Shown: positions 5,375 through 41,200 of the stretch, in pieces
Position numbering within the stretch: the first letter of the stretch is position 1
How the letters are laid out: each line of letters starts with the position of its first letter
Position numbers and translations under genes: made by a program
Assembly (NCBI GenBank): GCA_903893315.1
Contig: CAITLU010000024.1
Coordinates: 5,119 to 69,118 of the forward strand
Source: an uncultured bacterium
GTDB taxonomy: Bacteria; Desulfobacterota; Binatia; UBA1149; CAITLU01
Reading direction: 5' to 3'
Length of the DNA: 64,000 bases
The notes under the pieces: model-generated
Database searches by the model: none
The model's input: the letters and a program-made list of their open reading frames with translations, nothing else
Told to the model about the DNA's origin: nothing

Positions 5375-6025
5375 CTAGCCGGCGGAGGGCGTGCGCAGGA
5401 TTCCGGTCGTGAACATCTCCACGAGCGTGTCGGCGTGGGCTTCGACGTGTTCCGGAGAGAGCGGGTCGAAACCCCATAGCAGGTCGATCAGCGGTGCGGC
5501 GTCGAAGAAGTGCGGCACCGCACCGAGGAAGGCAAAAATCACGGACTGGATCGGCAGCTGTTTCAGGGCACCGCTGTCCAGGCCGGCCTGGAACATCATC
5601 TCGAGTTGTCGTGTCAGCGGACGCAGGTGTTTGTCGACCATCCATTCCAGGCGCGGGCTTCGCGCGGCGGACTCGGAGATGATCAGGCGCGCTACCTCGG
5701 GATGCCTGGCGTTGAAGTAGACGAAGCGGCGCGCCACGATGCGGACGGCCTCGTGCGGTTCCGACCGCATTACGTCCTCTTCGATGCCCTGGAGTACGGC
5801 CGTAAGGCGCCCGAAGGCCAACTCGACGGTGGCCCTCCACAGCGCTTCCTTGGATCCGAAATGGTAGTGGATGAGGGGCTGGGTGACGCCCACCCGGCGG
5901 GCAACGGAGGCCGTGGTCGCACCATCGTAGCCGTTCTTGGTGAATTCGACGAGCGAGGCCTCGAGGATCCTGTCGCGTGAAATCGTGGAGGATCGCCCTC
6001 GTTTGCTGCTGCTGGTTTCCGGCAC
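5375..6025 (-). CDS. TetR family transcriptional regulator
   Basis: N-terminal HTH ...RDRILEASLVEFTKNGYDGATTASVARRVGVTQPLIHYHFGSKEALW... is the classic TetR signature. It is divergent from the BNR-repeat gene. Confidence 0.85.
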   Translation of the reverse strand: MPETSSSKRGRSSTISRDRILEASLVEFTKNGYDGATTASVARRVGVTQPLIHYHFGSKEALWRATVELAFGRLTAVLQGIEEDVMRSEPHEAVRIVARRFVYFNARHPEVARLIISESAARSPRLEWMVDKHLRPLTRQLEMMFQAGLDSGALKQLPIQSVIFAFLGAVPHFFDAAPLIDLLWGFDPLSPEHVEAHADTLVEMFTTGILRTPSAG

Positions 6026-11516: not shown

Positions 11517-13373
11517 TCAGCCCTCGGCGCCGCGTTTGAGCACGTTGGCCCATTCGTCCTTGAGAGTCGCGGTGCGGTTGAATACCAGGGCTCCCGTGCG
11601 TGAGTCGGGGTCCACGGTGAAATAGCCCATCCGCTCGAACTGAAACGTCTGACCCGGCGCGGCCGACGTCAGACTCTCTTCCAATCTCGCTTCGGTATTC
11701 AACTCGAGCGAAGTCGGGTTCAGGTAGTCGAAGATAGTCGCGCCTTCCTCGACCCGAGCCGGATTTTCACGCGTGAAGAGCTGATTGTAGAGGCGTACTT
11801 CGGCGGGCAGGGCATGGGCTGCCGCTACCCAGTGCAGGGTTGCCTTTACTTTGCGTCCATCGGGCGCGTTGCCACCCGTGGTGGCCGGGTCGTAGGTGCA
11901 GCGAAGCTCGGTGATATCGCCGGCCTCGTTCTTCACGACGCCCGTGCAGGTGATGAAATAACCGTAGCGGAGTCTGACCTCGCGGCCCGGGGCGAGGCGG
12001 AAGAACTTTTTCGGCGGATCTTCCTGGAAGTCCTCGCGCTCGATGTAGAGTTCACGCGAGAACGGAACCTTGCGCGTTCCAGCCGACGGATCTTCCGGGT
12101 TGTTGACGGCGTCGAGGTACTCGACCCTGCCATCAGGGTAGTTCTCGATCACCATCTTGAGCGGCCGCAACACGCCCATCACGCGCGGCGTGTGGCGGTT
12201 GAGGTCGTCGCGTACGCAGAACTCGAGCTGCGCGAACTGCACCAGGTTGTCGCTGCGCGCAATGCCGATGCCTTCGCAGAAAGCGCGGATAGAGGCCGGC
12301 GTGTAGCCGCGCCGGCGCATGCCGGAGATGGTCGGCATGCGCGGGTCGTCCCAGCCGCGCACGTGCCCTTCCTCGACCAGCAACCTCAGCGTACGTTTGC
12401 TCATCACGGTGTAGGTGAGGTTCAGGCGCGCGAACTCGAACTGCCGCGGTCGTGAAGAATGCGCGCTGAGATCCACGTGGTCGAGCACCCAGTCGTAGAG
12501 AGCTCGATTCGGTACGAATTCCAGCGTGCACAACGAATGGGTGACGCCTTCGATGGCGTCGGAGAGACAGTGGGCGAAATCGTACATCGGGTAGATGCAC
12601 CACTTGTCGCCGCTGCGGTGATGTGAAGAGTGCTGGATGCGGTAGATGACCGGGTCGCGCATCGCGATGTTGGGTGCGGCCATGTCGATCCTGGCGCGCA
12701 GGGTCCGTGCGCCGCCGGCGAACTCGCCTGCGCGCATACGCCGGAAAAGATCCAGGTTCTCGTCCGTCGAACGTTCCCGCCATGGGCTGTGGCGGCCGGG
12801 TTCGGTGAGCGTGCCGCGATACTCGCGCATCTGCTCCGCGTTCAGGTCGCAGACGAAAGCGTTGCCTTTGCAGATAAGTTCTTCGGCAAAAAGGTAGAGG
12901 CGCTCGAAGTAGTCGGCCGCGTGGTAGAAGTGCGGCCCCCAGTCGAAACCGAGCCAGCGCACGTCCGCGGTGATCGAGTCCACGTACTCGACGTCTTCCT
13001 TGCTCGGGTTGGTGTCGTCCATGCGCAGGTGACAGCGCCCGCCGTTCTCGGCCGCCACGGTGAAGTTGAGACAGATGGCCTTGGCGTGGCCGATGTGGAG
13101 GTAGCCGTTCGGCTCGGGCGGAAAGCGCGTGACTATGGTTCGCCTTGGCCTGCCCGCCGCGACGTCGCCGGCGAGGTCGGCAGCTATGATCTGACGGATG
13201 AAGTCACTCCCTCCGGAAGCGGCGGGGACGGCGGTGTCGGCGGCATCTGCGCCGGCGCCCGAAGGCGTCGGTGACTTGGGTCGGGTATCGATGGGCACGC
13301 GAAAGTTCCTCTTGGCCTGTCTGCTCGTTCGGACGGCGGGGGAATAGATATGCGTTGCAGGGGGTGCGAACAA
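11517..13373 (-). CDS. glnS: Glutaminyl-tRNA synthetase
   Basis: [11 protein letters not shown]...[22 protein letters not shown]...[17 protein letters not shown] aligns to E. coli GlnRS from about residue 10. The true start is probably ~30 codons inside the ORF; otherwise there is a short N-terminal extension. Confidence 0.9.
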
Positions 13374-13663
13374 AAGGGGGAGTGCGGTTGAGGGCGGCGT
13401 CGAGGGGAAGGGCGTCGAGGATGTGTGGGTGCGGATCGCCGCTGCGCCCGTGAAGGCGAGGCCGGTGAGATGTCGGTAGTTTCGCGGCCACTGCCGTCAA
13501 CGCTCGGGTCAACGCTCAACCTATTCCGATTCGAAATAGGGAATCGCCTGCGACTCTAGGGTCGCCGGCACTCCGTCGCTACGATCGCTCGTCGACGGCG
13601 TGGGCCGGTGGAACTCGGCCCTTTGCCTGCCGCGTCCCCGGGCAGCCCCGTCGCTGAGGATGC

Positions 13664-16270
13664 GTGAGAGGTTTGTTGACTCTGCTGTGGTGGGTGAGCC
13701 GCCGCGAACTGCGAGCGAGGCCCGTCAGGGTGGCGTTGTTCGTGGGCTCGATCGCTACTGGAGTGGCGCTGCTGACGGCGATGCGCGTGGCCACCGACAG
13801 CATCGTCGACGGCTTCACCGCCGATCTCCAACGCATTGCGGGCAAGGCCGACCTGGAGATCGCCTGCGGCAGCGGTGAAATCGGTTTTCCTGAAGAGACG
13901 CTGGACAGGATTCGCGGGCACCCGGCGGTGGCACAGGCGGCGGCCCTGGTGCGCGGCTCGGTGAGGATCGAGGGCGAGAGGCCCGAGACGGTCGATCTGT
14001 TCGGGATCGACGTCCTGCAGAAGGAAGTGCTGGAACTGTTCGACGTCAACGTACTCGAACGCACCAAGGACGACTTCACTATCCTGAACGACCCGCGCGC
14101 GGTGTTCGTCACGCAGAAGCTGGCCGGCGAGCGAGGCCTGCACCTCGAAGACAAGATCCGCATGAGCGGCGTCGATGGGCTTCACGAGTACACGGTCAGG
14201 GGCATCTTTGCCGCCCAAGGTCTTGGCGAAGTCTTCGGCGGGCGTCTCGCGGCCATGTACCTGCCCGCAGCTCAGCCGGTTGTCGGAACGCGAGGCGATC
14301 TGGAGGTGTCGCTGATAGATCAGATTGCCGTGCGTCTGGTTGCCGGCACGGACGTGGATGTCGCAGAGCGCGAACTTCAGGTCCTGGCGGGTCCCTCGTT
14401 GATCGTTGCGGAGCCGTTGCAGAGGCGGGCGGTAGCTGAACGCACGGTGCGTGGGCTGCGCGCGACGTTGGTCGGCATGAGTACGCTGGCACTGATGGCC
14501 GCGGTTTTCATCGTCTATGCGTCGACCGTGACGCTGGTCGCGCAGCGCAGATCCAGCGCGGCGATGCTTGTCGCCATCGGGACGCGGCCGAATGCACTGG
14601 TGGCGCTGATCATGGCGGAGGCCGGTATTCTCGGGGCGATCGGCTCGATCATGGGAGTCGGCATCGGGCTGATGCTGGCGGGCGTGGTGATCGGCGATGT
14701 CGCTGAAGGGATGCGGCTGAACTATTCGCTATCGCTCGGCGAACCCGTTCGCTCGCTCAATCGTGCGATGCTGTTCGTCGTGCATCCGGCGGGCGGCGTG
14801 TTGACGGCCATGTTGTCGGCTCTTCTGCCGGCGCGGCGGCTGCGCGGAATAGATCCGCTGTGCTTGCAGCGACGGCACGGCGATCATTCGGACTCGGCGC
14901 GTTGGGCGCTGCCGTGGCGGGTCTTTACGGGTGGAGTCTCGGGACTCGCGTCGGGCGGCGCCGCGATCTGGTGGGGCGTACGAACGTCATCTTCCGCATG
15001 GTGCGCTTTCGGCGGCGTGGCGGTGGTGCTGGCTGCGGTGATAGTCGGGATCCCTGTGGTCATTTCGTCGTGGCGTTTCGCTGCGACCGCGCTCGCTCGT
15101 TTCCTCGGTATGCCGGGGAGGCTGGCAGCAGAGAATCTCGCCCGAAGCCTGGAACGCAGCGTGATCACTTCCGCCGCCATCGCGCTTTGCATCGCGGTAG
15201 CCGTCGGGGCGGGAAGCCTGGTCGCGAGTTTTCGTCAGTCGGTCACCAACTGGTACGGGTTCGCGGGTGATGCCCTGGTGTCGTCGCCTATCACCGACGG
15301 CGGATGGCTCTCCGCGCCGACTGCCGGAATTGTCGAGGGTCGGCTGCATGAACTCGCTTGCGTCAAGGGCGTAGAGACTCTGCGGGTTGTCCAAGGCGTG
15401 ATGTTCCGTGGTGAGCGGATTGCGTTGTCGGCGCTGAGCTCGGGTCTTCTCGACGTGGCACTCCAAGAGGCGCGGCCGCTGGGAGTCGCGAGTGTTGTAG
15501 AGGCAAGTGCGCGCATCCGGCGAGGAGAGGCGGCCGCCGTGTCGGAGAACTTCGCGCGACACTTCTCGCAGGACTCATACGCGGGGCGCGTAAGACTCGA
15601 CTCGCCTACAGGAACGGTCGAATTGCCGGTGGTCGCAGTGCTGCCCGACTACGTGTCGGACAAAGGGTCGCTGATCATCTCACGGCAGGTTCTTGCCGAC
15701 CGATGGCATGACGACGCCGTCAACTATTTTGCCGTCAACCTGGTGCATGGCGCCGCCGTCGATGATCTTCGTGAACAGGTCGCGACTCAGCTCGGCGCAT
15801 CTTTCAACCTTTCGGTCCTTCGCTCCGGCGATATGATTGAGCGCGTGGACGCAATGATAGGAGCGGCGTTCGCCGACATCGATACGATCAAGCTGCTGGT
15901 GCTGTTCCTGACGCTGGTCGGCATCGCGGATCTGCTGGCATCCAATATTCTCGACCGTCAGTGGGAGATGGCGGTCCTGCGTCTCGTCGGGATGCGCGAC
16001 TCCGAACTGGTTCGCGTGATGGTACTCGAGGCGCTGTGTGTCGGCATCGCGGCGTCGCTGCTCGGAGTGCTGGTCGGCGCTGTCTCGGCCTGGGTCTGGG
16101 TCGAGTTCAGCTACCCGGTACTGGTCGGCTATGTTCTCGAGTTCGTGTTCGGTTGGTGGGGCGCCGGCTTGTGCTTGGTATTGACCGTCTGCGCTGCGTA
16201 TCTTGCCGCCGTGGTTTGTGGATGGGCATCGCTGCGGATCTCAGCGCTGGAAGCTGTTCGTTATGAGTGA
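13664..16270 (+). CDS. ABC transporter permease, FtsX/MacB-LolE family, tandem-duplicated (two 4-TM FtsX domains, each with a large periplasmic loop)
   Basis: At 868 aa it has an N-terminal TM, a periplasmic domain and 3 TM, then a second copy ending in a typical FtsX C-terminal TM bundle. This is a YbbP/MacB-like architecture. Confidence 0.8.
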   Translation: MRGLLTLLWWVSRRELRARPVRVALFVGSIATGVALLTAMRVATDSIVDGFTADLQRIAGKADLEIACGSGEIGFPEETLDRIRGHPAVAQAAALVRGSVRIEGERPETVDLFGIDVLQKEVLELFDVNVLERTKDDFTILNDPRAVFVTQKLAGERGLHLEDKIRMSGVDGLHEYTVRGIFAAQGLGEVFGGRLAAMYLPAAQPVVGTRGDLEVSLIDQIAVRLVAGTDVDVAERELQVLAGPSLIVAEPLQRRAVAERTVRGLRATLVGMSTLALMAAVFIVYASTVTLVAQRRSSAAMLVAIGTRPNALVALIMAEAGILGAIGSIMGVGIGLMLAGVVIGDVAEGMRLNYSLSLGEPVRSLNRAMLFVVHPAGGVLTAMLSALLPARRLRGIDPLCLQRRHGDHSDSARWALPWRVFTGGVSGLASGGAAIWWGVRTSSSAWCAFGGVAVVLAAVIVGIPVVISSWRFAATALARFLGMPGRLAAENLARSLERSVITSAAIALCIAVAVGAGSLVASFRQSVTNWYGFAGDALVSSPITDGGWLSAPTAGIVEGRLHELACVKGVETLRVVQGVMFRGERIALSALSSGLLDVALQEARPLGVASVVEASARIRRGEAAAVSENFARHFSQDSYAGRVRLDSPTGTVELPVVAVLPDYVSDKGSLIISRQVLADRWHDDAVNYFAVNLVHGAAVDDLREQVATQLGASFNLSVLRSGDMIERVDAMIGAAFADIDTIKLLVLFLTLVGIADLLASNILDRQWEMAVLRLVGMRDSELVRVMVLEALCVGIAASLLGVLVGAVSAWVWVEFSYPVLVGYVLEFVFGWWGAGLCLVLTVCAAYLAAVVCGWASLRISALEAVRYE

Positions 16271-16321
16271 CGGCGTGGGGCCACGCCGCCGGCGCGTGGC
16301 GCGCCTCGGGATCGATCGCGA

Positions 16322-17350
16322 ATGACTGCGATGCGAATTCTCGGGGTGGGGTCGAGTCTGCCGCAACGGGTTGTTCTCAACGCCGAGATCGAGGCTCTGA
16401 CCGGGATGCCGCACGGGCGGATCCGCGAACTCTTCGGGGTGGACGAGCGTCGCTGGTCGCGAGGTGTCGAGAGCGCTGATCCACCCGAAGGGCAGCGCTG
16501 CAGCGACCTGGCGGCGGCGGCCGGCGCGGCCGCGCTGGCGGACGCGGGGATCGATCCTGCGGAGGTCGATCTGCTGGTCGCGGTCACCACGACTCCCGAC
16601 TGTCTGAATCCGCCGTTCGACGCGCTGGTCGCCAGGAAACTCGGGCTGGTCGGAGCCTTGGGGTTTACTCTGAGCGCTCCGTGTACCGGTGTGTTTCGAG
16701 GCACCGCACTTGCTGAAGCGATGCTCGCTTCGGGCCGCGCGCGCCGCGCATTGGTAGTCGCGGCGGAAACGCTTTCGCCGTTCTTCCGCTTCGGACCAAC
16801 GATTCCGAAGGACCACTGCTTGAATTCGGTATTGTACGCCGATGGTGCGGGCGCGTGGGTGCTGGGCACGGAAGGGACGCGCGAACCGAAAATTGAACTC
16901 CTCGATATCGAGTTGGCACAACTCGACGAAGAGCCTGGTGTGATGTTCCCGGGAATGTTGTCTGCGACGCCTCCGTCACTCGAGCGATTCTCCAGCTGTG
17001 ACGATCTCGGCTATCACGACTTCAGGCGTGTGCTCGCCAAAGGCGGGCGGCTCGCCGCCGAGGCCGCCGAGAGGGTGATGAAGAAGCTCGGCGTTGGTAC
17101 CGATGACGTGCGTTTTTTCGTGACCCACCAGGCCACAGGCAACATGCACAGGATAGGTGCTTCCTACGGACTTCCGCCGGAGAAGATTCCGGTCAACATC
17201 GACCGCGTCGGGAACACGGTCTCTGCGTCGATCCTGCTGCTGCTCGACGAACTCAAGCGCGAAGGGAGACTTGCGGCCGGAGATCTGCTCGTGCTGCATA
17301 CGGCAGAGAGTTCCACCTGGAGTTCCGCCGGGATGGCGATCCGCTGGTGA
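16322..17350 (+). CDS. 3-oxoacyl-ACP synthase III (FabH-like KAS III), catalytic Cys-His-Asn present
   Basis: The SAPCTG (Cys), FFVTHQATGN (His) and NIDRVGNTVSAS (Asn) motifs at the canonical spacings. It sits 51 bp downstream of the FtsX permease on the same strand. Confidence 0.8.
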   Translation: MTAMRILGVGSSLPQRVVLNAEIEALTGMPHGRIRELFGVDERRWSRGVESADPPEGQRCSDLAAAAGAAALADAGIDPAEVDLLVAVTTTPDCLNPPFDALVARKLGLVGALGFTLSAPCTGVFRGTALAEAMLASGRARRALVVAAETLSPFFRFGPTIPKDHCLNSVLYADGAGAWVLGTEGTREPKIELLDIELAQLDEEPGVMFPGMLSATPPSLERFSSCDDLGYHDFRRVLAKGGRLAAEAAERVMKKLGVGTDDVRFFVTHQATGNMHRIGASYGLPPEKIPVNIDRVGNTVSASILLLLDELKREGRLAAGDLLVLHTAESSTWSSAGMAIRW

Positions 17351-17402
17351 AGCGTCCTTGTCCTGGCCTTCTGGCGTAGTCGCAGGAAGCGAACGGGTTT
17401 CG

Positions 17403-18107
17403 TCAGGCGCGACCGGCGCCGCCGCTTCCCGTCAGTGCGATGTCTTCGGTTATCCTGCCGTCACTGACTCTGACGATCCGATCGCAGAACGATCCCCACA
17501 CCGGGTCGTGGGTGACGACCAAGGTCGTCACCCCGAGGTCTTCGTTGAGCATGCGCAGCAGCTCGATGATCTGGCGGCCGGCAATCGAGTCCAAGTTTCC
17601 GGTCGGCTCGTCCGCGAGGACTACCGACGGCGAAATGGCTAGCGCGCGTGCGATCGCGACCCTCTGCATTTCTCCGCCTGACAGAGAGTTGGCTTGATGA
17701 TTTTTCCGGTGCGTCATCCCGACCATGTCCATCGCTCTTGCGACTCTCTCGCGTTCCTCGTCGTGGGCTATGCCGTCGAGTCGCAGAGGCAGTGCGACGT
17801 TTTCGTCAGCGGTCAGGTACGGAAGCAGATTGAAAAACTGGAATACGATCCCTATTTCGCGCCTGCGCATGAGTGACAGGTCGTCGCTGCTCATGGCGGA
17901 AAGTTCTCGGTCCCCGAGCAGGACGCGACCGTGGTCGGGGTGCAGGAGTCCGGCGACCAGGTGCAACAGGGTGCTCTTGCCCGATCCGCTCGGTCCCATG
18001 ATCGCGCACATCTGTCCTCGCGGCACGTCGAAGTCGATGCCGCGAAGGGCCTCGACACGGGTGGTGCCGTGGCCGAATGCTTTCTGGACAGCGTCGAAGT
18101 GGATCAT
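17403..18107 (-). CDS. ABC transporter ATP-binding protein (LolD/MacB-type ATPase)
   Basis: Walker A GPSGSGKST, Q-loop, signature LSGGEMQRVAIARAL and Walker B VLADEPTGNLD. Confidence 0.9.
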   Translation of the reverse strand: MIHFDAVQKAFGHGTTRVEALRGIDFDVPRGQMCAIMGPSGSGKSTLLHLVAGLLHPDHGRVLLGDRELSAMSSDDLSLMRRREIGIVFQFFNLLPYLTADENVALPLRLDGIAHDEERERVARAMDMVGMTHRKNHQANSLSGGEMQRVAIARALAISPSVVLADEPTGNLDSIAGRQIIELLRMLNEDLGVTTLVVTHDPVWGSFCDRIVRVSDGRITEDIALTGSGGAGRA

Positions 18108-18120
18108 CTTGCGGCCTGCC

Positions 18121-18669
18121 TCAGCCCTGTTTGATCAATCGGCGCTCGATGCTTTCCAGCCAGGTCAGGTCGGCCCGTACACGCATTTCCGCACCGTCGA
18201 GGACGATTTCGGTGGCGCGCATGTCGACGCCGGCTTTCTCGAGTCTTCGTCGTCGCCTGGTGATCCTTGCGAGTCTGGTGAGGTAGACACTGCGTTGCTG
18301 CTTGATCATCGTGTAAACGCGGTCGATGTCGTCCGGTCCGAGAAACAGCAGCTTGAGGATCAATTCGTCGCGTAGAGGTTGTGCGTCTTCACGCACCGGA
18401 GCCAGCAGCCAGTCGTCGAGGTTCTGCTTTCCGTCGTGCGTGATGCGGTAGACCTTCCGGTTGGGCCGCCCCTTTTGGATCTCGTCCGCGACGGAGAGTT
18501 CGCCCGCCTTCTCGAGTTCGTCGAGTATCCGATAGAGCCGCCCGTAGTTCAGCGACCAGAACTCATCGGCGATGGCTTCGCATTCGCCGCGCAGGCGATA
18601 TCCGTGGATACCGTCGGATTTAGAGGCGATCAGGCCAAGTACCGCATAGCGAAGATTCCCAACCGACAT
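18121..18669 (-). CDS. PadR family transcriptional regulator
   Basis: A winged-helix PadR N-terminal domain (LRYAVLGLIASKSDGIHGYRLR...SLNYGRLYRILDELEKAGEL...GRPNRKVYRIT) with a C-terminal coiled extension. Confidence 0.8.
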   Translation of the reverse strand: MSVGNLRYAVLGLIASKSDGIHGYRLRGECEAIADEFWSLNYGRLYRILDELEKAGELSVADEIQKGRPNRKVYRITHDGKQNLDDWLLAPVREDAQPLRDELILKLLFLGPDDIDRVYTMIKQQRSVYLTRLARITRRRRRLEKAGVDMRATEIVLDGAEMRVRADLTWLESIERRLIKQG

Positions 18670-18795: not shown

Positions 18796-19221
18796 TCACT
18801 TATCCTGGCCGACCAGGACGGACTTCAGCGAGTGCAGCCTTTCGCGGATCTCGTCCCTGGCCAGCCGAAATCGCCTTCGTGTTTCTCCGGTCTCGACATC
18901 CGGGACGCTCGAGGCCGGATCCGCGATCGGCCAGTGAAGACGCTGGATCCGGCCCGGCAGCAGCGGGCAGACTTCTTCGGCGCACAGCGTGACGACCAAG
19001 TCGATCGTGGTCGGGTCGATCTCGTCCACCGACTTGGAGTGATGCCGGGAGATGTCGACGCCGACCTCGGCCATCGCTTCGATGGCGTAGGGGTTGACCG
19101 TCGAGGGCTTGGATCCCGCGCTCTGGACCTCGGCGTGGCCAGCCAGCAGTTGGCGAGCGAGACCTTCGGCCATCTGGCTTCTGGCCGAGTTGGCCACGCA
19201 TAGGAAAAGGATGCGCTTCAT
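18796..19221 (-). CDS. arsC: Arsenate reductase, thioredoxin-coupled LMW-PTP family (ArsC-like)
   Basis: [20 protein letters not shown]...[12 protein letters not shown] closely parallels B. subtilis ArsC, but the second P-loop Cys is replaced by Ala. The start is at the internal Met of a 381-aa shadow ORF. Confidence 0.7.
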
Positions 19222-20130
19222 GTCCTGCCCGATCCTGCCGACTTCAAGGTTGGTCGCGGTCCTACTTACGCCAGGGCTCTGCGGCCAGCGCAGTCTTAGC
19301 GGTTGCCGGCCGGTGCCTCCAGTGAACGCGAAACCGTTCCGGACGAATGCATGACGGCGTTGACGGCGAGGCTCGTGGGCGTGAGCGAGTGATTGGCCGC
19401 GGCGGACCCGGAGTGCGCGATGCGCGCACCGGACCGGAACGGGGCAGGGGGAGGAGTTCGTGCAGTGATTGTTAGTGGCGTGGTTCCGACGAGGGGGTCC
19501 GGATGGGAGCCGGCACCCCGCTCGAAACAATCCAGGCCGCGATCCGGCCGGTGCGCGAAACCGACAGTGGGCCGCGTTCCTGCGAGCGTCAAGTCGTCGC
19601 AGTCGCACTTCTTGGCTCTCGCGCATTTCAGCCTCGGGTCGCTTCGAGGGAGAGAGGGAGCAGCTTGCGTTGTGGGAGGATGCACCGTCCGCTCGATTCC
19701 TGGGATCGGCGTGTCTGCGTGGGATAATAGGGAGATAGGAGACGTAACTCGATTTCACCCGAAGCCCTGACCGCGCTTTCTCCGGCGGCCCGAGAGGTCG
19801 CGGGCGAGCCTCGGCGCACGCCCTGCCCGCAAAATACTTAGCACGCGTTTGCGGCGGCAAACGCTTGTTTGGGAGGTGCGGCATTGAAGCCGCGCTTGCG
19901 CGCGATCTAAGAGCCGAACCGGCCGGTCCCGGGCCTTGCAAGAGCCTGCGGGCTTGGCGTTGCGGGAGCCGGCGGGCCTCCTGCGTCTCGTCCGTTGGCT
20001 GCCTTTTCTCCGTTGCCTTCCGCGGGGCAGCGCGGCGAGAATCGCGGTGTGCCGACCACTGTGGTTTTCCGCCTTGGGGCCCTGCTTGGGGTCGCGAGTT
20101 TCGTCGTCCTTTGGCCCGTGCCCCGAATCA

Positions 20131-20771
20131 TCCGCCCAGGTCGTGCCTGGCGGCCAGATCACCAAGGCCAACTCGGAGAGGATCGAGGCGCTGGTCCCGC
20201 CGGGCGTCAAGTGGCGTGTCAATAACGGCATGAACATCGACATCGTCAAGACCGAGCGTTTCCGATCCGCGCCGACTACAAGGCCGTCACCGAGAAGTAC
20301 TCGGCCCAGGTGGTACTCGTCGTCAACAACGAACTCGACAACCGGGTGGCTGGCAAGCCTTTCCCGGGGATCGATCCGAACGATTCTCAGGCTGCGCAGA
20401 AGATCATGTACGACTTCGGGCACACCCATTACTGGCCCGAGACCCTCGACCTTCACCTTACCGTCGCCGACACAGGCAGCATCTACGTCGATACCAACGG
20501 CAACCGCCGCTATAACGTCGAGCGTCACTTCGTGCCCGACTGGATGCGCGTGCTGGGTTTCCAGGGCCGCATCAAGAACGAGCGGAAGCCGCAGTTTCTG
20601 CCGAACAATGACAAGGTATTTCAGAAGGCGGGGCTCTATCCTCTGATCGAGCCTTTCGACTTGAAGGGAGTCGGCGGAGTGTCGTTTCGCTGTCTCGACC
20701 AGACCGAGCAGGACGACACCTGGCTTGATCTTCCTTTCGTGCGCCGCCCGCCCCGTTGTCGCGGAAAGTAA
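20131..20771 (+). pseudogene. Frameshifted and truncated gene fragment (possibly DUF1329-like secreted protein). No signal peptide, a -1 frameshift near 20255, and no C-terminal half.
   Basis: A protein-like translation (…GQITKANSERIEALVPPGVKWRVNNGMNIDIVKTERF | IRADYKAVTEKYSAQVVLVVNNELDNRVAGKPFPGIDPND…HTHYW…) continues across two frames, separated by a 1-nt slip in a TTTCC run. The reading ends abruptly at 20771. Confidence 0.4.
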
Positions 20772-20921
20772 CTGGACAGCGAGGCTCCCCTGGGGCACAA
20801 GAAAAACCGTCGCGGAAAAACCCGTGTCGGGAACACCCGCGGGTAAATCGAACCGGCCCTCGCCGGTTTGAACTGCAACCGCAGATATTCGGTAGAAGGC
20901 TGAGGGACTGGAGGTCGGATC

Positions 20922-23804
20922 ATGAGGTTTCCGAAAGCGGGCAAGAGCGTGGCCGGCGTGGCGATGGCGGTTTCGTCGATGCTGCTGGGGGCCGCGCCGG
21001 CAGCCGCAGCGGGCTTCTGCGGTGCGGGTTCCAACGTCCCGCGGCCGCAGAACGTGATCCTGTTCGTGCTCGACGATTCCAGCCCCTCGGATCTTCCGTT
21101 CTTCAACACGCCGTTGGTGTGGCCGGACCAGAACAACCCTCCGCGGACCCTGCCGGACCCGGTGCTCACGGAAGGCGCCCTGCGACTGCCCGAATACAAC
21201 AGGGCGATGGCCAGGTTCTACGCTTCGCGTAACTGTCCGAGCGGCCTGTGTTCGCTCGGAGACAATTTCCTGCACCCGACCTCTTCGTCATCGCTGGTGG
21301 TTCCCGTGGATCTCGACGGCGATCAGACGGTGGTTTCTGCGACCAACGCCGACTCCTTCCGCTACGTCGAACGTAATCAAGCCGGCAATCTCTGCGGCGA
21401 AGAAACCGGGACCTGCGATGCCAACACGGACGTATTGTCGTCACACGGTGGCTTGCGCAAACTGGTAGAAGAGGGGCTTGCGTTTCGGCGTTTCTACGCC
21501 ACTTCGGCAAAGTGCGCGCCGACCCGCGCTTCGATGTTCACCGGTCGTTATCCGGGACAGGTCGGAGTGAGTCTGAACGGGAGCAAACTGGAAATTTCGG
21601 AACTGACGGCCGGCGACCTGCTCAAGGGACTGCCGGGATGCAAGGACGACGACGAGAACACTCCGTGTTATTCCACCGGCCATCTCGCCAAGTGGCATCT
21701 GGGAAGCAAGGAACACGCGAACCAGACTCCCTGGCAACGCGGCGCTGACGAGGCGGTATTCTTCCGCGGAGCGAGCCGGGTTCCGTTCAAGGACAGCCAG
21801 TTGCTCTGCGGTCCGCCGCCGATGCCGCACAACCCACCGGCGAATTACCGCCAGGGTTTCTATTGCAACAACGCGGCGCTGGCGGCGGCGGTTCCAGGTT
21901 GCATAACGAGCTCGCAGTGTGACGCCGCGTGTCCGGGTGGCCCTGGACGCTGCGCGTGCGCGGAAGGGCGTGACGTCGTGAGCAGTGACGACAACTTCTG
22001 CTATGAACTCGACCCGACGCCCTGTGCTTCGGATTCCGAGTGCCGGGCTGGTGCTAGCGACCACGACACCTGCGTGGCGTGGGGCCAGAACGTCGGCCCC
22101 GGAAATCAGACTGCCTGCCATCCTGACGATGCGGATCTGAATCTGGATTGCTGCACGCCACGCGCCAAGACTCCGACGCGCGGGCCTTTGGAAGGTCTCT
22201 ACTATTTCAAGAACAAGCAGATCGACGCCGGTGGGACGGCCAAGAAATTTTGGTTCAAGGACGGCGAGCGTGATCTTCTCACCGGTGAATCCCATTACCC
22301 GTGCAACTCCGATGCTAGCTATCTCGATTCGGGGCTCGAAGGCTGCATGTACGACACGCGGGTCTACCGCGACTGGGCGACCAATTTTATCGGTCGTCAT
22401 GCCGACGAACCGTTCTTCCTCACTATTCCTCTGCACTCGCTGCACGAACCCATGGACGCTCCGGTGCGCACGTTGGCGCACTACTCGACGGCGGGCCTGG
22501 TGACTAACGCTCCAGGCACCGCCGACAGGTTCTGGAGTTCGCTCGAGGAAGTGGACGCCGCTATCGGCAAGGTGATCGAGACCCTGGAAGGCGGCGTCTG
22601 CAACAGCAAGTCGTCGCCGGAGACAGCCGGCTTGAAGTGCGCGTCCAACGGCGACTGCGGAGGGACACCCGGAGCGGCTTGCGTGACCGATCTCGCTCAG
22701 CGAACCCTGATTCTGTTCACTGCCGACCAGGGCCAGACCAACGCACCCTACGGCAGCGCGATCCTGCGCGAGGGAAAGGGCTCGACGTTCGACGGCGGTC
22801 TGCGTGTCGGATTGCTGGCGTGGGATCCGGGTCTGGGCGTGGGAAGTGCGGCACCGGGCGGACATATGCGCGGCGATCCGTTCGTCGCCAGTCAGGTGGA
22901 CATATTGCCGACCGTGTTGGATGCGGCGGGCTGTGCGCCGAACCACGGAGACGATCAATACGAGATCAAGGCGTGCGTCGGCAGGAACGTCAGTCGGCCG
23001 AGTCTCTGCGACAGCGACCAGGATTGCGCGGCGGTTGGTGGCGGATCTTGCGTGTCGAGGTTGATAGCGGGCAGAACGATGCTGCCGGCGCTGGTGGGAG
23101 CGGGAACGCCGGTACGTGATTTTGCCTTCGCGTCGTATCCGAGCGAGCCGCAGATGATTTCCGTTCGCAGTGGATACTACAGCGACGGTTGCAGCGGCAA
23201 TGCCGACTGCAATGGCGCGGCGAAGATTTGCAGCTATGTCGGTGAACAAGGGCCGGACGCAGCGTCCGGAACACTGGACCGCAGCCGCCTCGGTGGATCC
23301 TGCGATGTCTGCGAGAGCGATGGTGACTGCAGCGGCACCATGTGCATCGCCAGCGGTACGTACTGCGTTCCAAGTACCGATTCGAGTTATCTGAGTCGTT
23401 GTACGGCTGAACCCGCCGGTGGAGCGCTGGATCCGGTCGGTGACGAATGTGATCCGGCTGCGTTCCAGCGCTGCTGGTCGGCCGTTGATTGTGGCCGGGA
23501 TGAGAGATGCGTTCAGGTGGAAACAACTTGCAACGGATGCCGTGCGGCGGCGTGGAAACTTATGGGCGGTGGCGGCGTAGGGGTCGGCAACCCGAGCAAG
23601 TCGGTCGCTCTCTTCGACCTCGGCAGCAACCCCGAAGAGAGCGAGTCCCTGGACTGCATCGACGAGGCCAAGAACCCGAGCAACCCGGACTACGCCAAGT
23701 TGAGCGCGACTGACGATGATCTGCGCCGACGTCTGGACGGCTGGTTCGACTGCATCAGCGCCGGTCTATCGGTCGATTGCGACACGCAGAAATCCCCGCA
23801 GTGA
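20922..23804 (+). CDS. Secreted sulfatase (formylglycine-dependent; CxPxR present) with multiple large cysteine-rich insertions, 960 aa
   Basis: Signal peptide; NVILFVLDD; the CAPTRASMFTGRYP sulfatase signature; GHLAKWHLG; PFFLTIPLHSLHEP; LILFTADQGQ. More than 60 Cys are spread through long inserts. Confidence 0.8.
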   Translation: MRFPKAGKSVAGVAMAVSSMLLGAAPAAAAGFCGAGSNVPRPQNVILFVLDDSSPSDLPFFNTPLVWPDQNNPPRTLPDPVLTEGALRLPEYNRAMARFYASRNCPSGLCSLGDNFLHPTSSSSLVVPVDLDGDQTVVSATNADSFRYVERNQAGNLCGEETGTCDANTDVLSSHGGLRKLVEEGLAFRRFYATSAKCAPTRASMFTGRYPGQVGVSLNGSKLEISELTAGDLLKGLPGCKDDDENTPCYSTGHLAKWHLGSKEHANQTPWQRGADEAVFFRGASRVPFKDSQLLCGPPPMPHNPPANYRQGFYCNNAALAAAVPGCITSSQCDAACPGGPGRCACAEGRDVVSSDDNFCYELDPTPCASDSECRAGASDHDTCVAWGQNVGPGNQTACHPDDADLNLDCCTPRAKTPTRGPLEGLYYFKNKQIDAGGTAKKFWFKDGERDLLTGESHYPCNSDASYLDSGLEGCMYDTRVYRDWATNFIGRHADEPFFLTIPLHSLHEPMDAPVRTLAHYSTAGLVTNAPGTADRFWSSLEEVDAAIGKVIETLEGGVCNSKSSPETAGLKCASNGDCGGTPGAACVTDLAQRTLILFTADQGQTNAPYGSAILREGKGSTFDGGLRVGLLAWDPGLGVGSAAPGGHMRGDPFVASQVDILPTVLDAAGCAPNHGDDQYEIKACVGRNVSRPSLCDSDQDCAAVGGGSCVSRLIAGRTMLPALVGAGTPVRDFAFASYPSEPQMISVRSGYYSDGCSGNADCNGAAKICSYVGEQGPDAASGTLDRSRLGGSCDVCESDGDCSGTMCIASGTYCVPSTDSSYLSRCTAEPAGGALDPVGDECDPAAFQRCWSAVDCGRDERCVQVETTCNGCRAAAWKLMGGGGVGVGNPSKSVALFDLGSNPEESESLDCIDEAKNPSNPDYAKLSATDDDLRRRLDGWFDCISAGLSVDCDTQKSPQ

Positions 23805-25725: not shown

Positions 25726-26133
25726 TCAGCGCGCCAAGGTGATCTCGAGGACGGCCCTGGCGTGGTAGCGTCCCGAGAGTTTTGACAGCACATCGACGAG
25801 CCACTTTTGCCATCCGTACTTGCGGTCCAGACTCCCGTAGGCTTTCGCGATCAGGGCCGGTTCGGTGACGATGCGCCCGGTGCCTTTCCAACTCGGTCCC
25901 CGCACTACCCCGCGCCAGTTACAGGCGGCCAGTTCTACATCCGAGTTTCGGCCCAGCCTCTTGACCTTGAACGATCCAGCTTCGGTGAACATATAAATCC
26001 TGCTGCCCACAACCGCGTGCCAGATCGGTACGGCCACCGGTGAGCCGTCGCGCTTGTACGTGGTAAGGCTAACGTATGCTTCCTTTTCGATAGAGCCCCG
26101 TCCCTTGGAGGCGCTTCCTCGTGATCTAACCAT
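25726..26133 (-). CDS. Pyridoxamine 5'-phosphate oxidase-like split-barrel protein (PPOX class / putative F420- or FMN-binding)
   Basis: 135 aa. ...EAYVSLTTYKRDGSPVAVPIWHAVVGSRIYMFTEAGSFKVKRLGRNSDVELAA... matches the PPOX-class small proteins from memory. Confidence 0.55.
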   Translation of the reverse strand: MVRSRGSASKGRGSIEKEAYVSLTTYKRDGSPVAVPIWHAVVGSRIYMFTEAGSFKVKRLGRNSDVELAACNWRGVVRGPSWKGTGRIVTEPALIAKAYGSLDRKYGWQKWLVDVLSKLSGRYHARAVLEITLAR

Positions 26134-26211
26134 TTTTTTCTCCTGTGAACCGGTTGTCCATGGTGTGTCGCTGCGGGTCTGGCCGGTTTCGAATCCCTGT
26201 GTCGCGAGGAG

Positions 26212-27144
26212 TTATCCGTCCACGCGTTCGATGACTACCAGGCGTCCGATGAGATGCCCGGGCGGAGGCGCCGGCGGGACTTGGATTTCGATACGTCCCG
26301 CCACTCCTTGGACGAGTCGTACTCCGGCGGCGGTAACGACGAAACCCTTCACCCTGAGCGCGCCGCGCTCCGACAGTTCGCCGAGCAGGACTTCGGGATC
26401 GACGATGCCGTCGACGACCATCTCCCGGCTGCAGTAATCATCGTGATGACGGTGGGTGTGGTCTTGCCGAGTGCGAGCGGCGGTGCCGTCACCAGCGAGG
26501 ATCCTGTTCTCGGGACTGTGGTCGCGGGGCTTCACGCCCGCCGGCGACGGCGGGAACACGATTCTCTCGTCGATCGTGCCGAAGCGGCAGCGCACGATAG
26601 CTACGCCCGGTTGTATCCGCTGCAACTCGGCTTCCGCGCGTACGCAGTCTTCGCTGCTGACAAGGTCGGTCTTGTTGAGAACCAGGAGGTCCGCCGAGCA
26701 GATCTGATCGATGAAAACAGGATCGAGGTCGCGGCCGGCGGCAACCTGCTCGGCGCTGACCACGACGATCGCGGTTTCGTCGCGGGCCCAGCCCCGCACC
26801 GGATCGCGCCAGAAGTTCAGCAGCGTGTCGTAGGGCAGGGCCACGCCGGATGTCTCGACGATGACGCGCTGGGGACGGGCCCTCTCCCACAGTTCCTGAA
26901 GTGTGCGCAGCAGGTCGTCGGAGAGGCGGCAGCACACGCAGCCTCCCGACAACTCCACGTAGTCGGCGGCGGCGTCCGCCAGCAAGGCTTCGTCGATGCC
27001 GAGTTCGCCGAACTCGTTGGAGACGACCGCGGTGCGGATGCCCTGACGCTGGCCCTCTTCGAGGAGATGGCGAACCAGCGTTGTCTTGCCTGAGCCGAGA
27101 AAGCCGGAGACGACCAGGGCCTGGGCGCTGTCGTGCTCTACCAT
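26212..27144 (-). CDS. COG0523 (CobW/ZigA-like) metallochaperone GTPase with a His-rich segment
   Basis: Walker A GFLGSGKTTL, the CxCC metal motif GGCVCC, NKTD, and a His-rich linker RTRQDHTHRHHDDYCS. Its start overlaps the stop of the MBL gene. Confidence 0.8.
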   Translation of the reverse strand: MVEHDSAQALVVSGFLGSGKTTLVRHLLEEGQRQGIRTAVVSNEFGELGIDEALLADAAADYVELSGGCVCCRLSDDLLRTLQELWERARPQRVIVETSGVALPYDTLLNFWRDPVRGWARDETAIVVVSAEQVAAGRDLDPVFIDQICSADLLVLNKTDLVSSEDCVRAEAELQRIQPGVAIVRCRFGTIDERIVFPPSPAGVKPRDHSPENRILAGDGTAARTRQDHTHRHHDDYCSREMVVDGIVDPEVLLGELSERGALRVKGFVVTAAGVRLVQGVAGRIEIQVPPAPPPGHLIGRLVVIERVDG

Positions 27145-27998
27145 GTCAGAATCGAAAAGCTCTGACCGGGGTACCTCTTGACCAGTCCGCCGAGCCACCA
27201 CACGCGCTCCGGTGCGGCTCTTTGTTCGAGGATGGAGGTGAGCGTTTGCTGGAGCGCAACCAGCGCCTCGCGCGGCATCGTCGTGCCCATATGACCGCAC
27301 AGCACGGTTCGTATTTCCGGGTAGTCGCCAAGCAGACGCTTGGTTGATTCAAGATAGGCGGCCAGATCGGCACCCGGCAGAAAAGTGTAAAGTTCCCCCG
27401 CATAAAGAAAGTCGCCGACGAATGCGTAGCCACGGGCCCGGTCGACAAGGGCGATCGAGTCGGGCGAGTGTCCGGGGATCGAAACGGCTTCGAGAACGCG
27501 ACCGCCGATGTCGATTTTTTCGCCGGGCTTCCACCATTCAGTGACCATGAAGCTGCTCGCCAACGGCGACAGACTCATCGCCAGCGATGGCGTGTAGCGG
27601 TTGTCGACGGTGTGCTCGCGGTTGATCGGCAGGTCGACCATGGCAATCTCATCGAAACTGCCGATGCTGCCGATGTGGTCGTAGTGAACGTGCGACGGAA
27701 TCACGGTTGTCGGCTTGCGCGTGACGTTGTCGGACATGTGCTTGATGTCGCGGGTGCCCGAACCGGCGTCGAACAGGATCGTGCGAACTTGTCCCTTGAT
27801 GATGAAGGAATTGTTCTTCTGCCAGTACTTGGGTTCTGAGATGGCCCAGGTGTCGGCGTCGATACGCGAGACGTCGAAGTACCCGTCGGTGGCGCTGATG
27901 CTGACCGGGGTCTGGGCCGAAGCCGGGCTCGGGCAACCCAATACGCATGTGGCCGCGGCTGCTGCCGCCGCGGCCATGACGACGAGGCTGGTGGCGAC
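27138..27998 (-). CDS. MBL-fold metallo-hydrolase, exported (probable lipoprotein)
   Basis: The HVHYDHIG (HxHxDH) metallo-beta-lactamase motif. N-terminal MAAAAAAAATCVLGC is a signal with a lipobox. The start is uncertain; the 5' part of the 377-aa ORF overlaps hrpB and is rejected. Confidence 0.7.
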   Translation of the reverse strand, partial: VATSLVVMAAAAAAAATCVLGCPSPASAQTPVSISATDGYFDVSRIDADTWAISEPKYWQKNNSFIIKGQVRTILFDAGSGTRDIKHMSDNVTRKPTTVIPSHVHYDHIGSIGSFDEIAMVDLPINREHTVDNRYTPSLAMSLSPLASSFMVTEWWKPGEKIDIGGRVLEAVSIPGHSPDSIALVDRARGYAFVGDFLYAGELYTFLPGADLAAYLESTKRLLGDYPEIRTVLCGHMGTTMPREALVALQQTLTSILEQRAAPERVWWLGGLVKRYPGQSFSILTW

Positions 27999-39841: not shown

Positions 39842-41200
39842 ATGCTCTCCGCTAGCGCGGCCCGGGACCTTCGCGGACGCAGAGGCGAAGCTTGGAATCG
39901 GCTGCCGTTCTCATACTATCGCGCGTCCGTGTTCCCGGTCTTACTGAAATTCGGCCCCTTTACCGTCTACAGCTTCGGCGTGTTGATGGCGCTCGGGTTC
40001 TACTTCGGATCGTTGGTTTCGGTGAAGGAGTTCGAACGCCGCGGCGGGGATGGCGAAACACTCTGGAACCTTCTGGTATGGGTGTTTCTCGGCGGCCTCG
40101 TCAGTTCGCGGGTGCTGTCGATCTTCAACAACCCTTCGGCGTTTTTCGAGAGCCCGCTGTCGGAGATCTTCGCGGGCGCGGGTTTCGTCTGGTACGGCGG
40201 GTTTCTCGGCGGCGCGGCGACGGCGTGGCTGCTCGGCCGTCGAAAGAACCTCGCCTTCTTGACCCTGGCCGACTGCTGCGCGCTGGGGCTGGCCCTCGGT
40301 CAGGCTTTCGGGCGTGTGGGCTGTCACGTCGCGGGCGACGGGGACTGGGGCAAGGTCACCGATCTGCCTTGGGGCGTCGCCTATACGCATGCCATCGTCG
40401 GCTGGTCCTACCCTGATGGAGTCCTCGTGCATCCGACTCCACTGTACGAGGTGGCCGCTTACCTGGCGCTGTTCGCGTTCCTGTGGCGCTACCGTCATCG
40501 CAACCCGCCGACCGGGTCGATGTTCGCGGTCTATCTGATCGGCAACGGCTTCGCGCGTTTCTGGGTAGAGTTCCTTCGCATCGAGCCGGTGCTGGCTCTG
40601 GGGTTGACGCAGGCCCAGTGGATCGGCATGGCGTTGACCGCGGCGGGTGCCATATGGCTGCTGCGTCGCGGTCCGGCCGTCAACGCGAGAGCGACGGCCG
40701 TGGGATTGGCCGCCCTGCTCCTGGTGGTTCCGCTTGGCGGCTGCGACAGCAAGGTCGGTGTCTCCGAGGGAGACCTGGCCCCCGATTTCATCCTGCAGAG
40801 TGCCGACGGACAGACGCGCAAACTTTCCAACTATCGCGGGCACGTCGTGCTGGTGAATCTGTGGGCGACCTGGTGTCCGCCCTGCATGGAAGAGATGCCG
40901 GTGCTCAACCAACTGGCCGAGCGGTATCGCGACAAGGGCTTGGTGGTGCTCGGTCTTGCCGGGGATGACGACCCTCAGCGGGTCCGCGACTTTGTCGCCA
41001 AGTCACCGCTCAAATTCGAAGTTCTGCTCGACTCGGACGGTGCGATCGGAACTCAGTATGGTATAACCGGCTACCCGGAGACCTTTTTCATAGATAGAGA
41101 AGGCCGGGTTCGCGACAAGATCATCGGAGCCATTCCCGGCCGGGCCGGCGGTGTGTCTCCCCAGTTCGCGCAGCGGCTGGAAAGTCTGTTGGGTGGTTAG
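39842..41200 (+). CDS. lgt: Prolipoprotein diacylglyceryl transferase (Lgt) fused to a C-terminal TlpA/ResA-like thioredoxin domain (WCPPC)
   Basis: N-terminal 270 aa: GPFTVYSFGVLMALGF, the GRVGCHVAGDGDWG (Lgt signature-like) and HPTPLYE motifs. C-terminal 170 aa: …RGHVVLVNLWATWCPPCMEEMP…GYPETFFIDREG… is a thioredoxin fold with a CxxC motif. The start codon is uncertain. Confidence 0.75.
   Translation: MLSASAARDLRGRRGEAWNRLPFSYYRASVFPVLLKFGPFTVYSFGVLMALGFYFGSLVSVKEFERRGGDGETLWNLLVWVFLGGLVSSRVLSIFNNPSAFFESPLSEIFAGAGFVWYGGFLGGAATAWLLGRRKNLAFLTLADCCALGLALGQAFGRVGCHVAGDGDWGKVTDLPWGVAYTHAIVGWSYPDGVLVHPTPLYEVAAYLALFAFLWRYRHRNPPTGSMFAVYLIGNGFARFWVEFLRIEPVLALGLTQAQWIGMALTAAGAIWLLRRGPAVNARATAVGLAALLLVVPLGGCDSKVGVSEGDLAPDFILQSADGQTRKLSNYRGHVVLVNLWATWCPPCMEEMPVLNQLAERYRDKGLVVLGLAGDDDPQRVRDFVAKSPLKFEVLLDSDGAIGTQYGITGYPETFFIDREGRVRDKIIGAIPGRAGGVSPQFAQRLESLLGG

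Follow-up and report, generated by a model that had tools for sequence, protein, structure and literature searches.

A predicted YbbP-type transporter, a KAS III-like enzyme, and a PadR-family regulator encoded in a conserved four-gene module of uncultured Binatia- and Myxococcota-like bacteria

Results

Four genes and two operator-like sites

The 64-kb stretch of DNA analyzed here (hereafter the window; GC content of ~64%), which comes from contig CAITLU010000024.1 of an uncultured member of the Binatia, carries four neighboring genes encoding an internally duplicated permease of the FtsX family, an enzyme resembling beta-ketoacyl-acyl carrier protein (ACP) synthase III (KAS III), an ATP-binding cassette (ABC) ATPase, and a PadR-family regulator (Table 1). 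These four genes had been reported in a preliminary description made from the sequence alone, and our open reading frames (ORFs), together with Pfam and NCBIfam matches, reproduced all of them at the same coordinates. As also described there, the KAS III gene follows the permease gene on the same strand, beginning 51 bp after the permease stop codon, and converges with the ATPase gene. The convergent gap measures 52 bp, and the PadR gene lies 13 bp upstream of the ATPase gene. In public gene calls, the permease begins at 13730 and has 846 amino acids (aa). We favored the GTG start codon at 13664, which gives 868 aa, because the extra first 22 residues (LLWWVSRRELRARPVR) are conserved in homologues, with which they align from residue 2 to 7 on.

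Table 1. Genes and operator-like sites of the module, with their positions in the window
Feature	Position	Strand	Basis or placement
YbbP-type duplicated FtsX permease (predicted), 868 aa	13664..16270	+	Pfam 2x MacB_PCD + 2x FtsX; hydropathy; AlphaFold2 (AF2) model; Foldseek
KAS III-like thiolase-fold enzyme, 342 aa	16322..17350	+	Pfam ACP_syn_III + ACP_syn_III_C
ABC ATPase, LolD/YbbA/MacB class, 234 aa	17403..18107	-	Pfam ABC_tran 2.6e-36
PadR-family regulator, subfamily 1, 182 aa	18121..18669	-	Pfam PadR (PF03551) 4e-16, Vir_act_alpha_C (PF10400) 2.5e-8
Operator-like 19-bp palindrome, CTATTCCGATTCGAAATAG	13521..13539	.	~125 nt 5' of the permease start codon
Degenerate palindrome copy, CTATCTCCAAAGAGAACAA	18759..18777	-	108 nt 5' of the PadR start codon

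The module is set in a housekeeping chromosomal region devoid of other biosynthetic genes. No terminator was apparent in the 52-bp convergent gap, the fold being no better than that of shuffled sequence (z = 0.68), and a scan for consensus promoters and terminators gave matches at chance level only. Scans of the window for tRNAs and Rfam families yielded no matches, and the PADLOC models for antiphage defense returned generic ABC-ATPase matches only.

A predicted YbbP-type transporter

The two halves of the permease align in register with 25% identity (E = 8e-4), in agreement with the tandem duplication noted in the preliminary description. Both hydropathy and the secondary structure of the AF2 model (mean predicted local distance difference test score [pLDDT] of 83.7) predict 10 transmembrane (TM) helices, and the model places large periplasmic MacB-type domains between TM1-2 and TM7-8 as well as a linker pair, TM5-6. 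When this model was compared with the Protein Data Bank (PDB) by Foldseek, the best match and the sole full-length one was Escherichia coli YbbP (9ge6_A; E = 2.8e-21), with TM-scores of 0.62/0.65 over 885 alignment columns; LolE, LolC, and MacB ranked below it, each matching over half the length. The topology of YbbP used for this comparison was the published one (PMC12646458). By sequence, the permease is a distant relative of LolC, LolE, and LolF, and it falls below the cutoffs of the corresponding models (TIGR02212, 42.7 versus 362 bits; LolC, 34 versus 473 bits; LolE, 23.7 versus 439 bits). The ATPase has intact Walker A, signature, Walker B, and H-loop motifs, and its best NCBIfam and PDB matches are LolD, FtsE, YbbA, BceA, and MJ0796. 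No gene for a MacA-type adaptor, an outer membrane factor, or a TesA-like/SGNH hydrolase accompanies the module in any examined locus. As modeled, the transporter is a YbbP-type Type VII (mechanotransmission) ABC transporter composed of a duplicated 10-helix permease and a separate ATPase, with a predicted activity. The earlier label "MacB/LolCDE-like" thus proved too loose for a YbbP-type permease that has 10 helices, lacks a MacA adaptor, and scores far below the LolC and LolE cutoffs.

Residues specific to the KAS-linked permease clade were found in TM1, the stalk and TM2, the periplasmic end of TM3, TM7, the stalk and TM8, and shoulder loop 2. If LolCDE and YbbAP are a guide, these residues would sit around the presumed outer-leaflet substrate cavity. 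We also considered whether the enzyme docks onto a cytoplasmic patch of the permease but found no support for it, clade-specific conserved residues being almost missing from the cytoplasmic linkers.

A KAS III-like family distinct from FabH

The enzyme possesses the Cys-His-Asn triad (C121, H269, and N298), as the preliminary description had it, and we aligned 69 family members with 44 canonical homologues and E. coli FabH to compare its other residues. Within the family, the triad Cys is found in 68 of 69 sequences, and His and Asn are found in all 69. Several FabH positions are replaced throughout the family, namely, W32 by R, R36 by L, T37 by F, G209 by F, N247 by T (creating an HQAT motif), and R249, the ACP-docking arginine of FabH, by N. 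R151 (E. coli numbering) persists in 22 of the 69 family sequences, the position being V/R in the family. The canonical homologues, in contrast, retain W32, R36, R151, N247, and R249 in 42 to 44 of 44 sequences (44 for W32 and R249 and 43 for R36). W32, R36, R151, and N247 are the coenzyme A (CoA) contacts of FabH (PMC4606726). Moreover, the F304-G305-G306 loop beside the catalytic Cys is changed to E-S-S/A in the family, with the Glu and the first Ser present in 69/69 sequences; in the numbering of the enzyme, A328-E329-S330 is invariant. A family-specific insertion of six residues (FRFGPxxPKD) completes these differences.

The closest known family by sequence and fold is nevertheless FabH, to the E. 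coli member of which the enzyme is 26% identical, although it scores below the cutoffs of the NCBIfam FabH models (NF006829, 163.7 versus 249 bits; TIGR00747, 140.4 versus 292.1 bits). A profile search of the PDB gave 167 bits for FabH, 118 for PqsD, 115 for MxnB, 105 for CorB, and 86 for OleA. Foldseek searches of the PDB with the AF2 model (mean pLDDT of 93.8) were not discriminating, with FabH, AbyA1, BioZ, and PqsD at nearly equal scores. The DarB/StlD models gave 46 to 56 bits versus cutoffs of 450 to 550, and the models of DarB/StlD, DpgA, HMG-CoA synthase, and other named KAS III-like families altogether ranged from 34 to 93 bits versus cutoffs of 244 to 550. The public annotation of the enzyme is the generic "3-oxoacyl-ACP synthase III family protein." Neither a signal peptide nor a hydrophobic N terminus was detected, and the enzyme is therefore expected to be cytoplasmic.

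A homology search retrieved a tight family of KAS III sequences at 47 to 100% identity, followed by a drop to ≤38% (canonical FabH). A profile search widened the family to 41% identity, beyond which scores fell from 394 to 193 bits. The family is small, with about five clusters at 50% identity in an exhaustive hidden Markov model (HMM) search of 1.84 billion representatives. By these comparisons, the enzyme belongs to a discrete, non-FabH KAS III-like family that has kept the catalytic triad and lost the substrate contacts of FabH, its activity being predicted.

Two further observations were made during these searches. A sister KAS III-like group (P0273 and P0276-P0288; 349 to 427 aa, 190 to 243 bits) has the common loop A-E-[AS]-[ST]-K-W, and its catalytic His is often a Pro (PPQAN or xPQAN); its genomic context could be seen only on the sole retrievable contig (L175, 1.9 kb), which was uninformative. 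One retrieved protein, P0274 (4818 aa), consists of 12 successive chalcone-synthase copies; it is probably a gene-model artifact and was set aside as irrelevant.

Conservation of the four-gene module

Genome and metagenome collections, together with exact look-ups, supplied the related loci, onto which the four window proteins were mapped by tblastn. The permease-KAS III adjacency, which the preliminary description had taken as meaningful, recurs throughout the family: an orthologous permease gene lies directly upstream of the KAS III gene, on the same strand, in 33/33 family loci having at least 500 nt of upstream sequence, versus 0 of 136 nonfamily KAS III loci with a permease match within 6 kb. 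All four genes travel together in relatives whose KAS III is 41 to 100% identical to that of the window. The boundary of the permease family is as sharp as that of the KAS III family (41 to 100% identity, then ≤30%), and the nearest outgroup permeases have no KAS III neighbor. When E. coli FabH and three canonical FabHs served as tblastn queries against the 64-kb window, no second KAS III or fab gene emerged, the only match being the gene at 16322, and Pfam recognized no fab or acp gene among 30 of the 51 ORFs of a rough gene list of the window. Likewise, no fab or acp gene was found near any of the ~24 distinct related loci, and the related loci were free of other biosynthetic genes as well. 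The dedication of the ketosynthase to the transporter, as previously suggested, is in line with its scores below the FabH cutoffs, the loss of FabH-invariant residues, its absence from any fab operon, and its constant position beside this permease clade. The relatives bear the taxonomic labels Binatia, Myxococcales, and Polyangiaceae, with Limnocylindrales and Hyphomicrobiaceae occurring once each. Judged from these comparisons, the module is conserved across uncultured Binatia- and Myxococcota-like bacteria and is not a chance neighborhood, which points to a previously undescribed system that may handle a lipid-like molecule.

The convergent arrangement of the window is that of the majority of loci. 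A co-linear arrangement, in the order PadR, ATPase, permease, and KAS III, is found in L083/L084/L105, L089, L101, and L174, and at least ATPase, permease, and KAS III are co-linear in L010. The genes of the co-linear loci L083, L089, and L174 overlap or are spaced by 5 to 10 nt. The co-linear loci make up the basal clade of a neighbor-joining tree that had canonical FabH at its root, and the strand split therefore looks like a derived inversion. The ancestral form thus appears to have been a single PadR-ATPase-permease-KAS III operon, of which the PadR-ATPase pair would later have been inverted in the lineage of the window, and the inversion noted in the preliminary description is upheld. Its view that the ketosynthase had been inserted among transporter genes did not hold, the KAS III gene being instead an integral and apparently ancestral member of the four-gene operon. 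It had also been considered that the ATPase might serve another permease. Since the orthologous ATPase gene lies directly upstream of the permease gene, on the same strand, in L083, L089, L101, L105, L174, and L010, the ATPase is, on this comparative evidence, the cognate nucleotide-binding subunit of the permease.

Lipid-modifying enzymes are encoded beside two related permeases. In L102 (176-8077), the gene for a membrane methyltransferase of the PEMT/ICMT family (5503-6000) lies between the permease and KAS III genes; two or three more FtsX-permease paralogues or fragments flank the permease-KAS III pair of this locus. At L172:7001-10523 (GCA_029261965.1, JAJDAH010000424.1), a CMAS-type (PF02353) lipid methyltransferase gene begins 32 nt after the gene for a duplicated FtsX permease that is among the nearest outgroup permeases (~26% identity), both genes being on the same strand. 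Here, for a second time, a YbbP-like permease is paired with a lipid-modifying enzyme of the cytoplasm.

PadR and the operator-like palindromes

The regulator combines an N-terminal winged-helix PadR domain with a C-terminal Vir_act_alpha_C dimerization domain, and its nearest solved relatives are Bacillus subtilis PadR and AphA. A comparison of upstream regions revealed a 19-bp palindrome, CTATTCC-N5-GGAATAG, 5' of the permease gene in at least 14 orthologous loci, including loci without an adjacent PadR gene. The window copy has one mismatch to this consensus and is the sole match of the window at ≤3 mismatches. At ≤2 mismatches, the family loci (472 kb) contained 20 matches to the palindrome, all but one of which (19) lay directly upstream of the permease or PadR gene, versus a single match in 1.79 Mb of nonfamily loci. 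A weight matrix was built from the permease-side palindromes and used to scan the regions upstream of PadR. In 15 of 17 loci, its best match was located between 104 and 123 nt 5' of the PadR start; these PadR-side matches scored in the top 0.4 to 6% of random segments from the same loci. In the window, the degenerate copy is upstream of a conserved TTGAC box. Both convergent units thus bear versions of one palindrome, which supports co-regulation and suggests that the permease operon and the PadR-ATPase unit are controlled together. We infer that PadR is the protein that would bind these putative operators.

Other features of the window and of related loci

Directly upstream of the permease gene, L088 (4518-5246) and L090 (4444-5172) carry a gene for a 242-aa protein resembling protein kinases and Kdo kinases; the palindrome is still present between this gene and the permease gene. 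Genes downstream of PadR, encoding a PNPOx-like protein, a CobW GTPase, a metallo-beta-lactamase-fold protein, and an HrpB helicase, are syntenic between the window (25726-27300 and beyond) and L173 (12098-14402), with corresponding coordinates in L087 (9550-9957). L173 is labeled Hyphomicrobiaceae, and its KAS III is 47% identical to that of the window; given the synteny, this label may be unreliable.

Elsewhere in the window, a 452-aa ORF (39842-41200, + strand) combines a prolipoprotein diacylglyceryl transferase (Lgt) domain (residues 32 to 273) with a C-terminal AhpC/TSA-Redoxin domain (residues 309 to 432) in an apparently unusual fusion. Between an ArsC-like gene (18796-19221, - strand) and the gene for a 960-aa sulfatase-like protein, ~1.7 kb (19222-20921) contains overlapping ORFs of 506 aa (- strand) and 236 aa (+ strand) without Pfam matches, where public calls give a 153-aa ORF. 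The sulfatase-like protein (20922-23804, + strand) shows three weak, separated Sulfatase stretches (E = 1.3e-23) and long unmatched regions, and its gene adjoins the module only in the closest relatives. The glutaminyl-tRNA synthetase gene upstream of the module (11517-13373, - strand) matched a "GlnRS/YqeY fusion" model at positions 6 to 558 of 769, i.e., the GlnRS part only, and does not have the fusion form.

Discussion

We propose a model in which PadR governs the module, the enzyme makes a lipophilic acyl-derived product, and the transporter extracts this product from the membrane, a reading that we hold tentatively, with a probability of roughly 0.42. The KAS III-like enzyme would use acyl-thioesters at the cytoplasmic face of the membrane to form the lipophilic product, which could be a beta-keto-acyl derivative, a ketone, or a pyrone-like lipid and which would partition into the inner membrane. 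The permease, powered by the ATPase dimer, would then extract the product from the outer leaflet and release it into the envelope or the medium. PadR would bind the palindromes and set the expression of both operons according to the amount of a hydrophobic ligand, which might be the product. The preliminary description had suggested that a lipid- or polyketide-like molecule is produced in situ and exported or resisted, which would agree with the data. In favor of this model are the conservation of the module, the YbbP-type fold of the permease and the LolD/YbbA class of the ATPase, the retained triad and replaced FabH residues of the enzyme, the palindrome common to both units, and, indirectly, the lipid theme of related loci, i.e., the PEMT/ICMT gene of L102 and the CMAS gene of L172.

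Several points weigh against this model. All family members come from metagenome-assembled genomes. Type VII transporters are not known to accept cytoplasmic substrates, and a product made in the cytoplasm is assumed to reach the outer leaflet by the spontaneous flip of a neutral lipid. Genes for an ACP, an acyl-CoA ligase, a thioesterase, or a tailoring enzyme are missing from the module, so that a single-enzyme pathway has to be postulated, and no periplasmic or outer membrane partner is encoded nearby. In a third arrangement, that of four lineages (L007, L009, L088, and L090), the permease gene precedes the KAS III gene, and the ATPase and PadR genes are not in the fetched flanks. Finally, the palindrome precedes the presumed -35 region, and the copy on the PadR side is a degenerate one.

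The known system that most resembles the module in its transporter is YbbAP-TesA, a Type VII ABC transporter that works with an acyl-ester hydrolase and was characterized as recently as 2025. Both have a separate ATPase and a single, internally duplicated permease of ~800 to 870 aa with 10 TM helices and two Porter/Sabre-type periplasmic domains (TM1-2 and TM7-8), and both lack a MacA-type adaptor. In both, moreover, the transporter genes adjoin a gene for an enzyme acting on acyl-(thio)esters. However, the module permease is only 14% identical to YbbP, which phmmer did not find, and the partner of YbbAP is a periplasmic SGNH hydrolase, whereas that of the module is a cytoplasmic KAS III-like enzyme without a signal peptide. 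Unlike in YbbAP-TesA, the partner gene of the module is downstream of the permease gene and probably co-transcribed with it, and the module has its own PadR and palindromic operator-like sites. LolCDE and MacAB-TolC share with the module an FtsX/MacB_PCD permease, a LolD-like ATPase, and the proposed extraction mechanism. In contrast to LolCDE, the two permease halves of the module are fused in one 10-helix chain, and the LolC/LolE models give 20 to 43 bits versus cutoffs of 360 to 540. In contrast to MacAB-TolC, the nucleotide-binding domain is encoded by a separate gene. No locus has a MacA/HlyD adaptor, a fused nucleotide-binding domain, or a LolA/LolB gene.

On the regulatory side, LmrR-LmrCD and the acidobacterial PadR/ADOP pairs resemble the module in that a PadR regulator, probably autoregulated, is encoded with an ABC transporter or a duplicated FtsX permease. 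The module nevertheless differs from the acidobacterial pairs, TIGR03433 and TIGR03434 being below their cutoffs (padR_acidobact, 34.5 versus 101.8 bits; ADOP, 36.4 versus 622.3 bits). Its motif, TATTCC-N5-GGAATA, also differs from what we take to be the operators of B. subtilis PadR and LmrR, ATGT-N8-ACAT. We know of no PadR-regulated ABC operon or ADOP pair that includes a KAS III gene.

Another explanation, which we consider unlikely, is that the module is an inducible resistance cassette. PadR would sense a hydrophobic toxin or antibiotic and the pump would clear it from the membrane, while the enzyme would act as a drug-insensitive surrogate of FabH or as a toxin-inactivating acyltransferase. 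The combination of PadR, an ABC ATPase, and an FtsX permease is generally known as the layout of detoxification and resistance modules, and the nearest solved PadR relatives are ligand-released repressors, e.g., B. subtilis PadR. Among the altered residues at the CoA-tunnel entrance is W32, which docking placed in contact with platencin in FabH (PMC4606726), so that the changes could confer insensitivity. The location of the module in a housekeeping region devoid of other biosynthetic genes would also fit such a cassette. Against the surrogate role, the loss of R249, W32, and R36 and the failure of the FabH models make a replacement of FabH in fatty acid synthesis unlikely. As for inactivation, the Asn of the decarboxylation triad is kept, which argues for condensation over simple acyl transfer, and no KAS III-type enzyme is known to detoxify a xenobiotic.

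An only slightly less probable alternative, to which we also give little credence, is that the module serves to recycle membrane lipids or to control their quality, by analogy with YbbAP-TesA, which has been proposed to extract and hydrolyze lipids (PMC12646458). The transporter would then extract aberrant or surplus lipids (e.g., lysolipids or free acyl chains), and the enzyme would reroute the derived acyl-thioesters or prime an alternative class of fatty acids in envelope stress. Besides the YbbAP-TesA precedent, the lipid-modifying PEMT/ICMT and CMAS enzymes encoded next to related permeases are consistent with such a function, as are the housekeeping neighborhood of the module and the Lgt gene elsewhere in the window. 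However, TesA is periplasmic and thus on the delivery side, whereas a cytoplasmic enzyme cannot receive a substrate extracted outward. The patchy and small family, with its few clusters among the 1.84 billion representatives searched, is also unlike core homeostasis.

FabH (E. coli 1HN9/1EBL) resembles the enzyme in its thiolase fold, both ACP_syn_III domains, the Cys-His-Asn triad, and a length of ~340 aa. Unlike FabH, the family is never found in a fab operon, its CoA and ACP residues are replaced, and it carries the six-residue insertion. OleA, PpyS, the pyrone synthases CorB/MxnB, PqsD, and DarB/StlD are, like the enzyme, single thiolase-fold proteins; they act on acyl-thioesters outside fatty acid synthesis and yield lipophilic products or signals. 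In some of these condensing enzymes, an active-site glutamate serves as the base, and the family has the invariant Glu329 beside the oxyanion loop. The position of Glu329 differs from what we take to be that of OleA Glu117. A further hypothesis, which we regard as improbable, is that of a minimal circuit of synthase, exporter, and receptor, in which the enzyme, with Glu329 beside the catalytic Cys, would make a pyrone, diketone, or ketone lipid from two acyl-thioesters, the YbbAP-type machine would extract it from the membrane and release it, and PadR would sense it via the palindromes.

Lastly, a coincidental neighborhood, in which an ordinary FabH gene would happen to lie beside an unrelated transporter and the ATPase would serve another permease, is very improbable and is contradicted by the comparative data: although no known family scores better than FabH in sequence and fold comparisons and our search for a second FabH covered the 64-kb window, the adjacency holds in every family locus down to 41% KAS III identity and in none of the other KAS III loci, the orthologous ATPase gene directly precedes the permease gene in co-linear operons, FabH-invariant residues are lost with scores below the cutoffs, and a palindrome is common to both units.

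In our literature searches, we found no report that links a KAS III gene to PadR or to an FtsX/Type VII transporter. In the module, a YbbP-type extractor would have been paired with an acyl-thioester enzyme for a second time and independently in evolution. The enzyme is here a predicted cytoplasmic condensing enzyme of an uncharacterized KAS III family, and the module includes its own regulator and operator-like sites. It also marks a KAS III clade, recognizable by its E-S-S loop, its HQAT motif, and its lost CoA and ACP contacts, that is now annotated as FabH-like. If the product of the enzyme is indeed the substrate of the transporter, the module would provide Binatia- and Myxococcota-like bacteria with a compact route to make and release a lipid-like molecule, and the transporter field would gain a system whose substrate is genetically specified.

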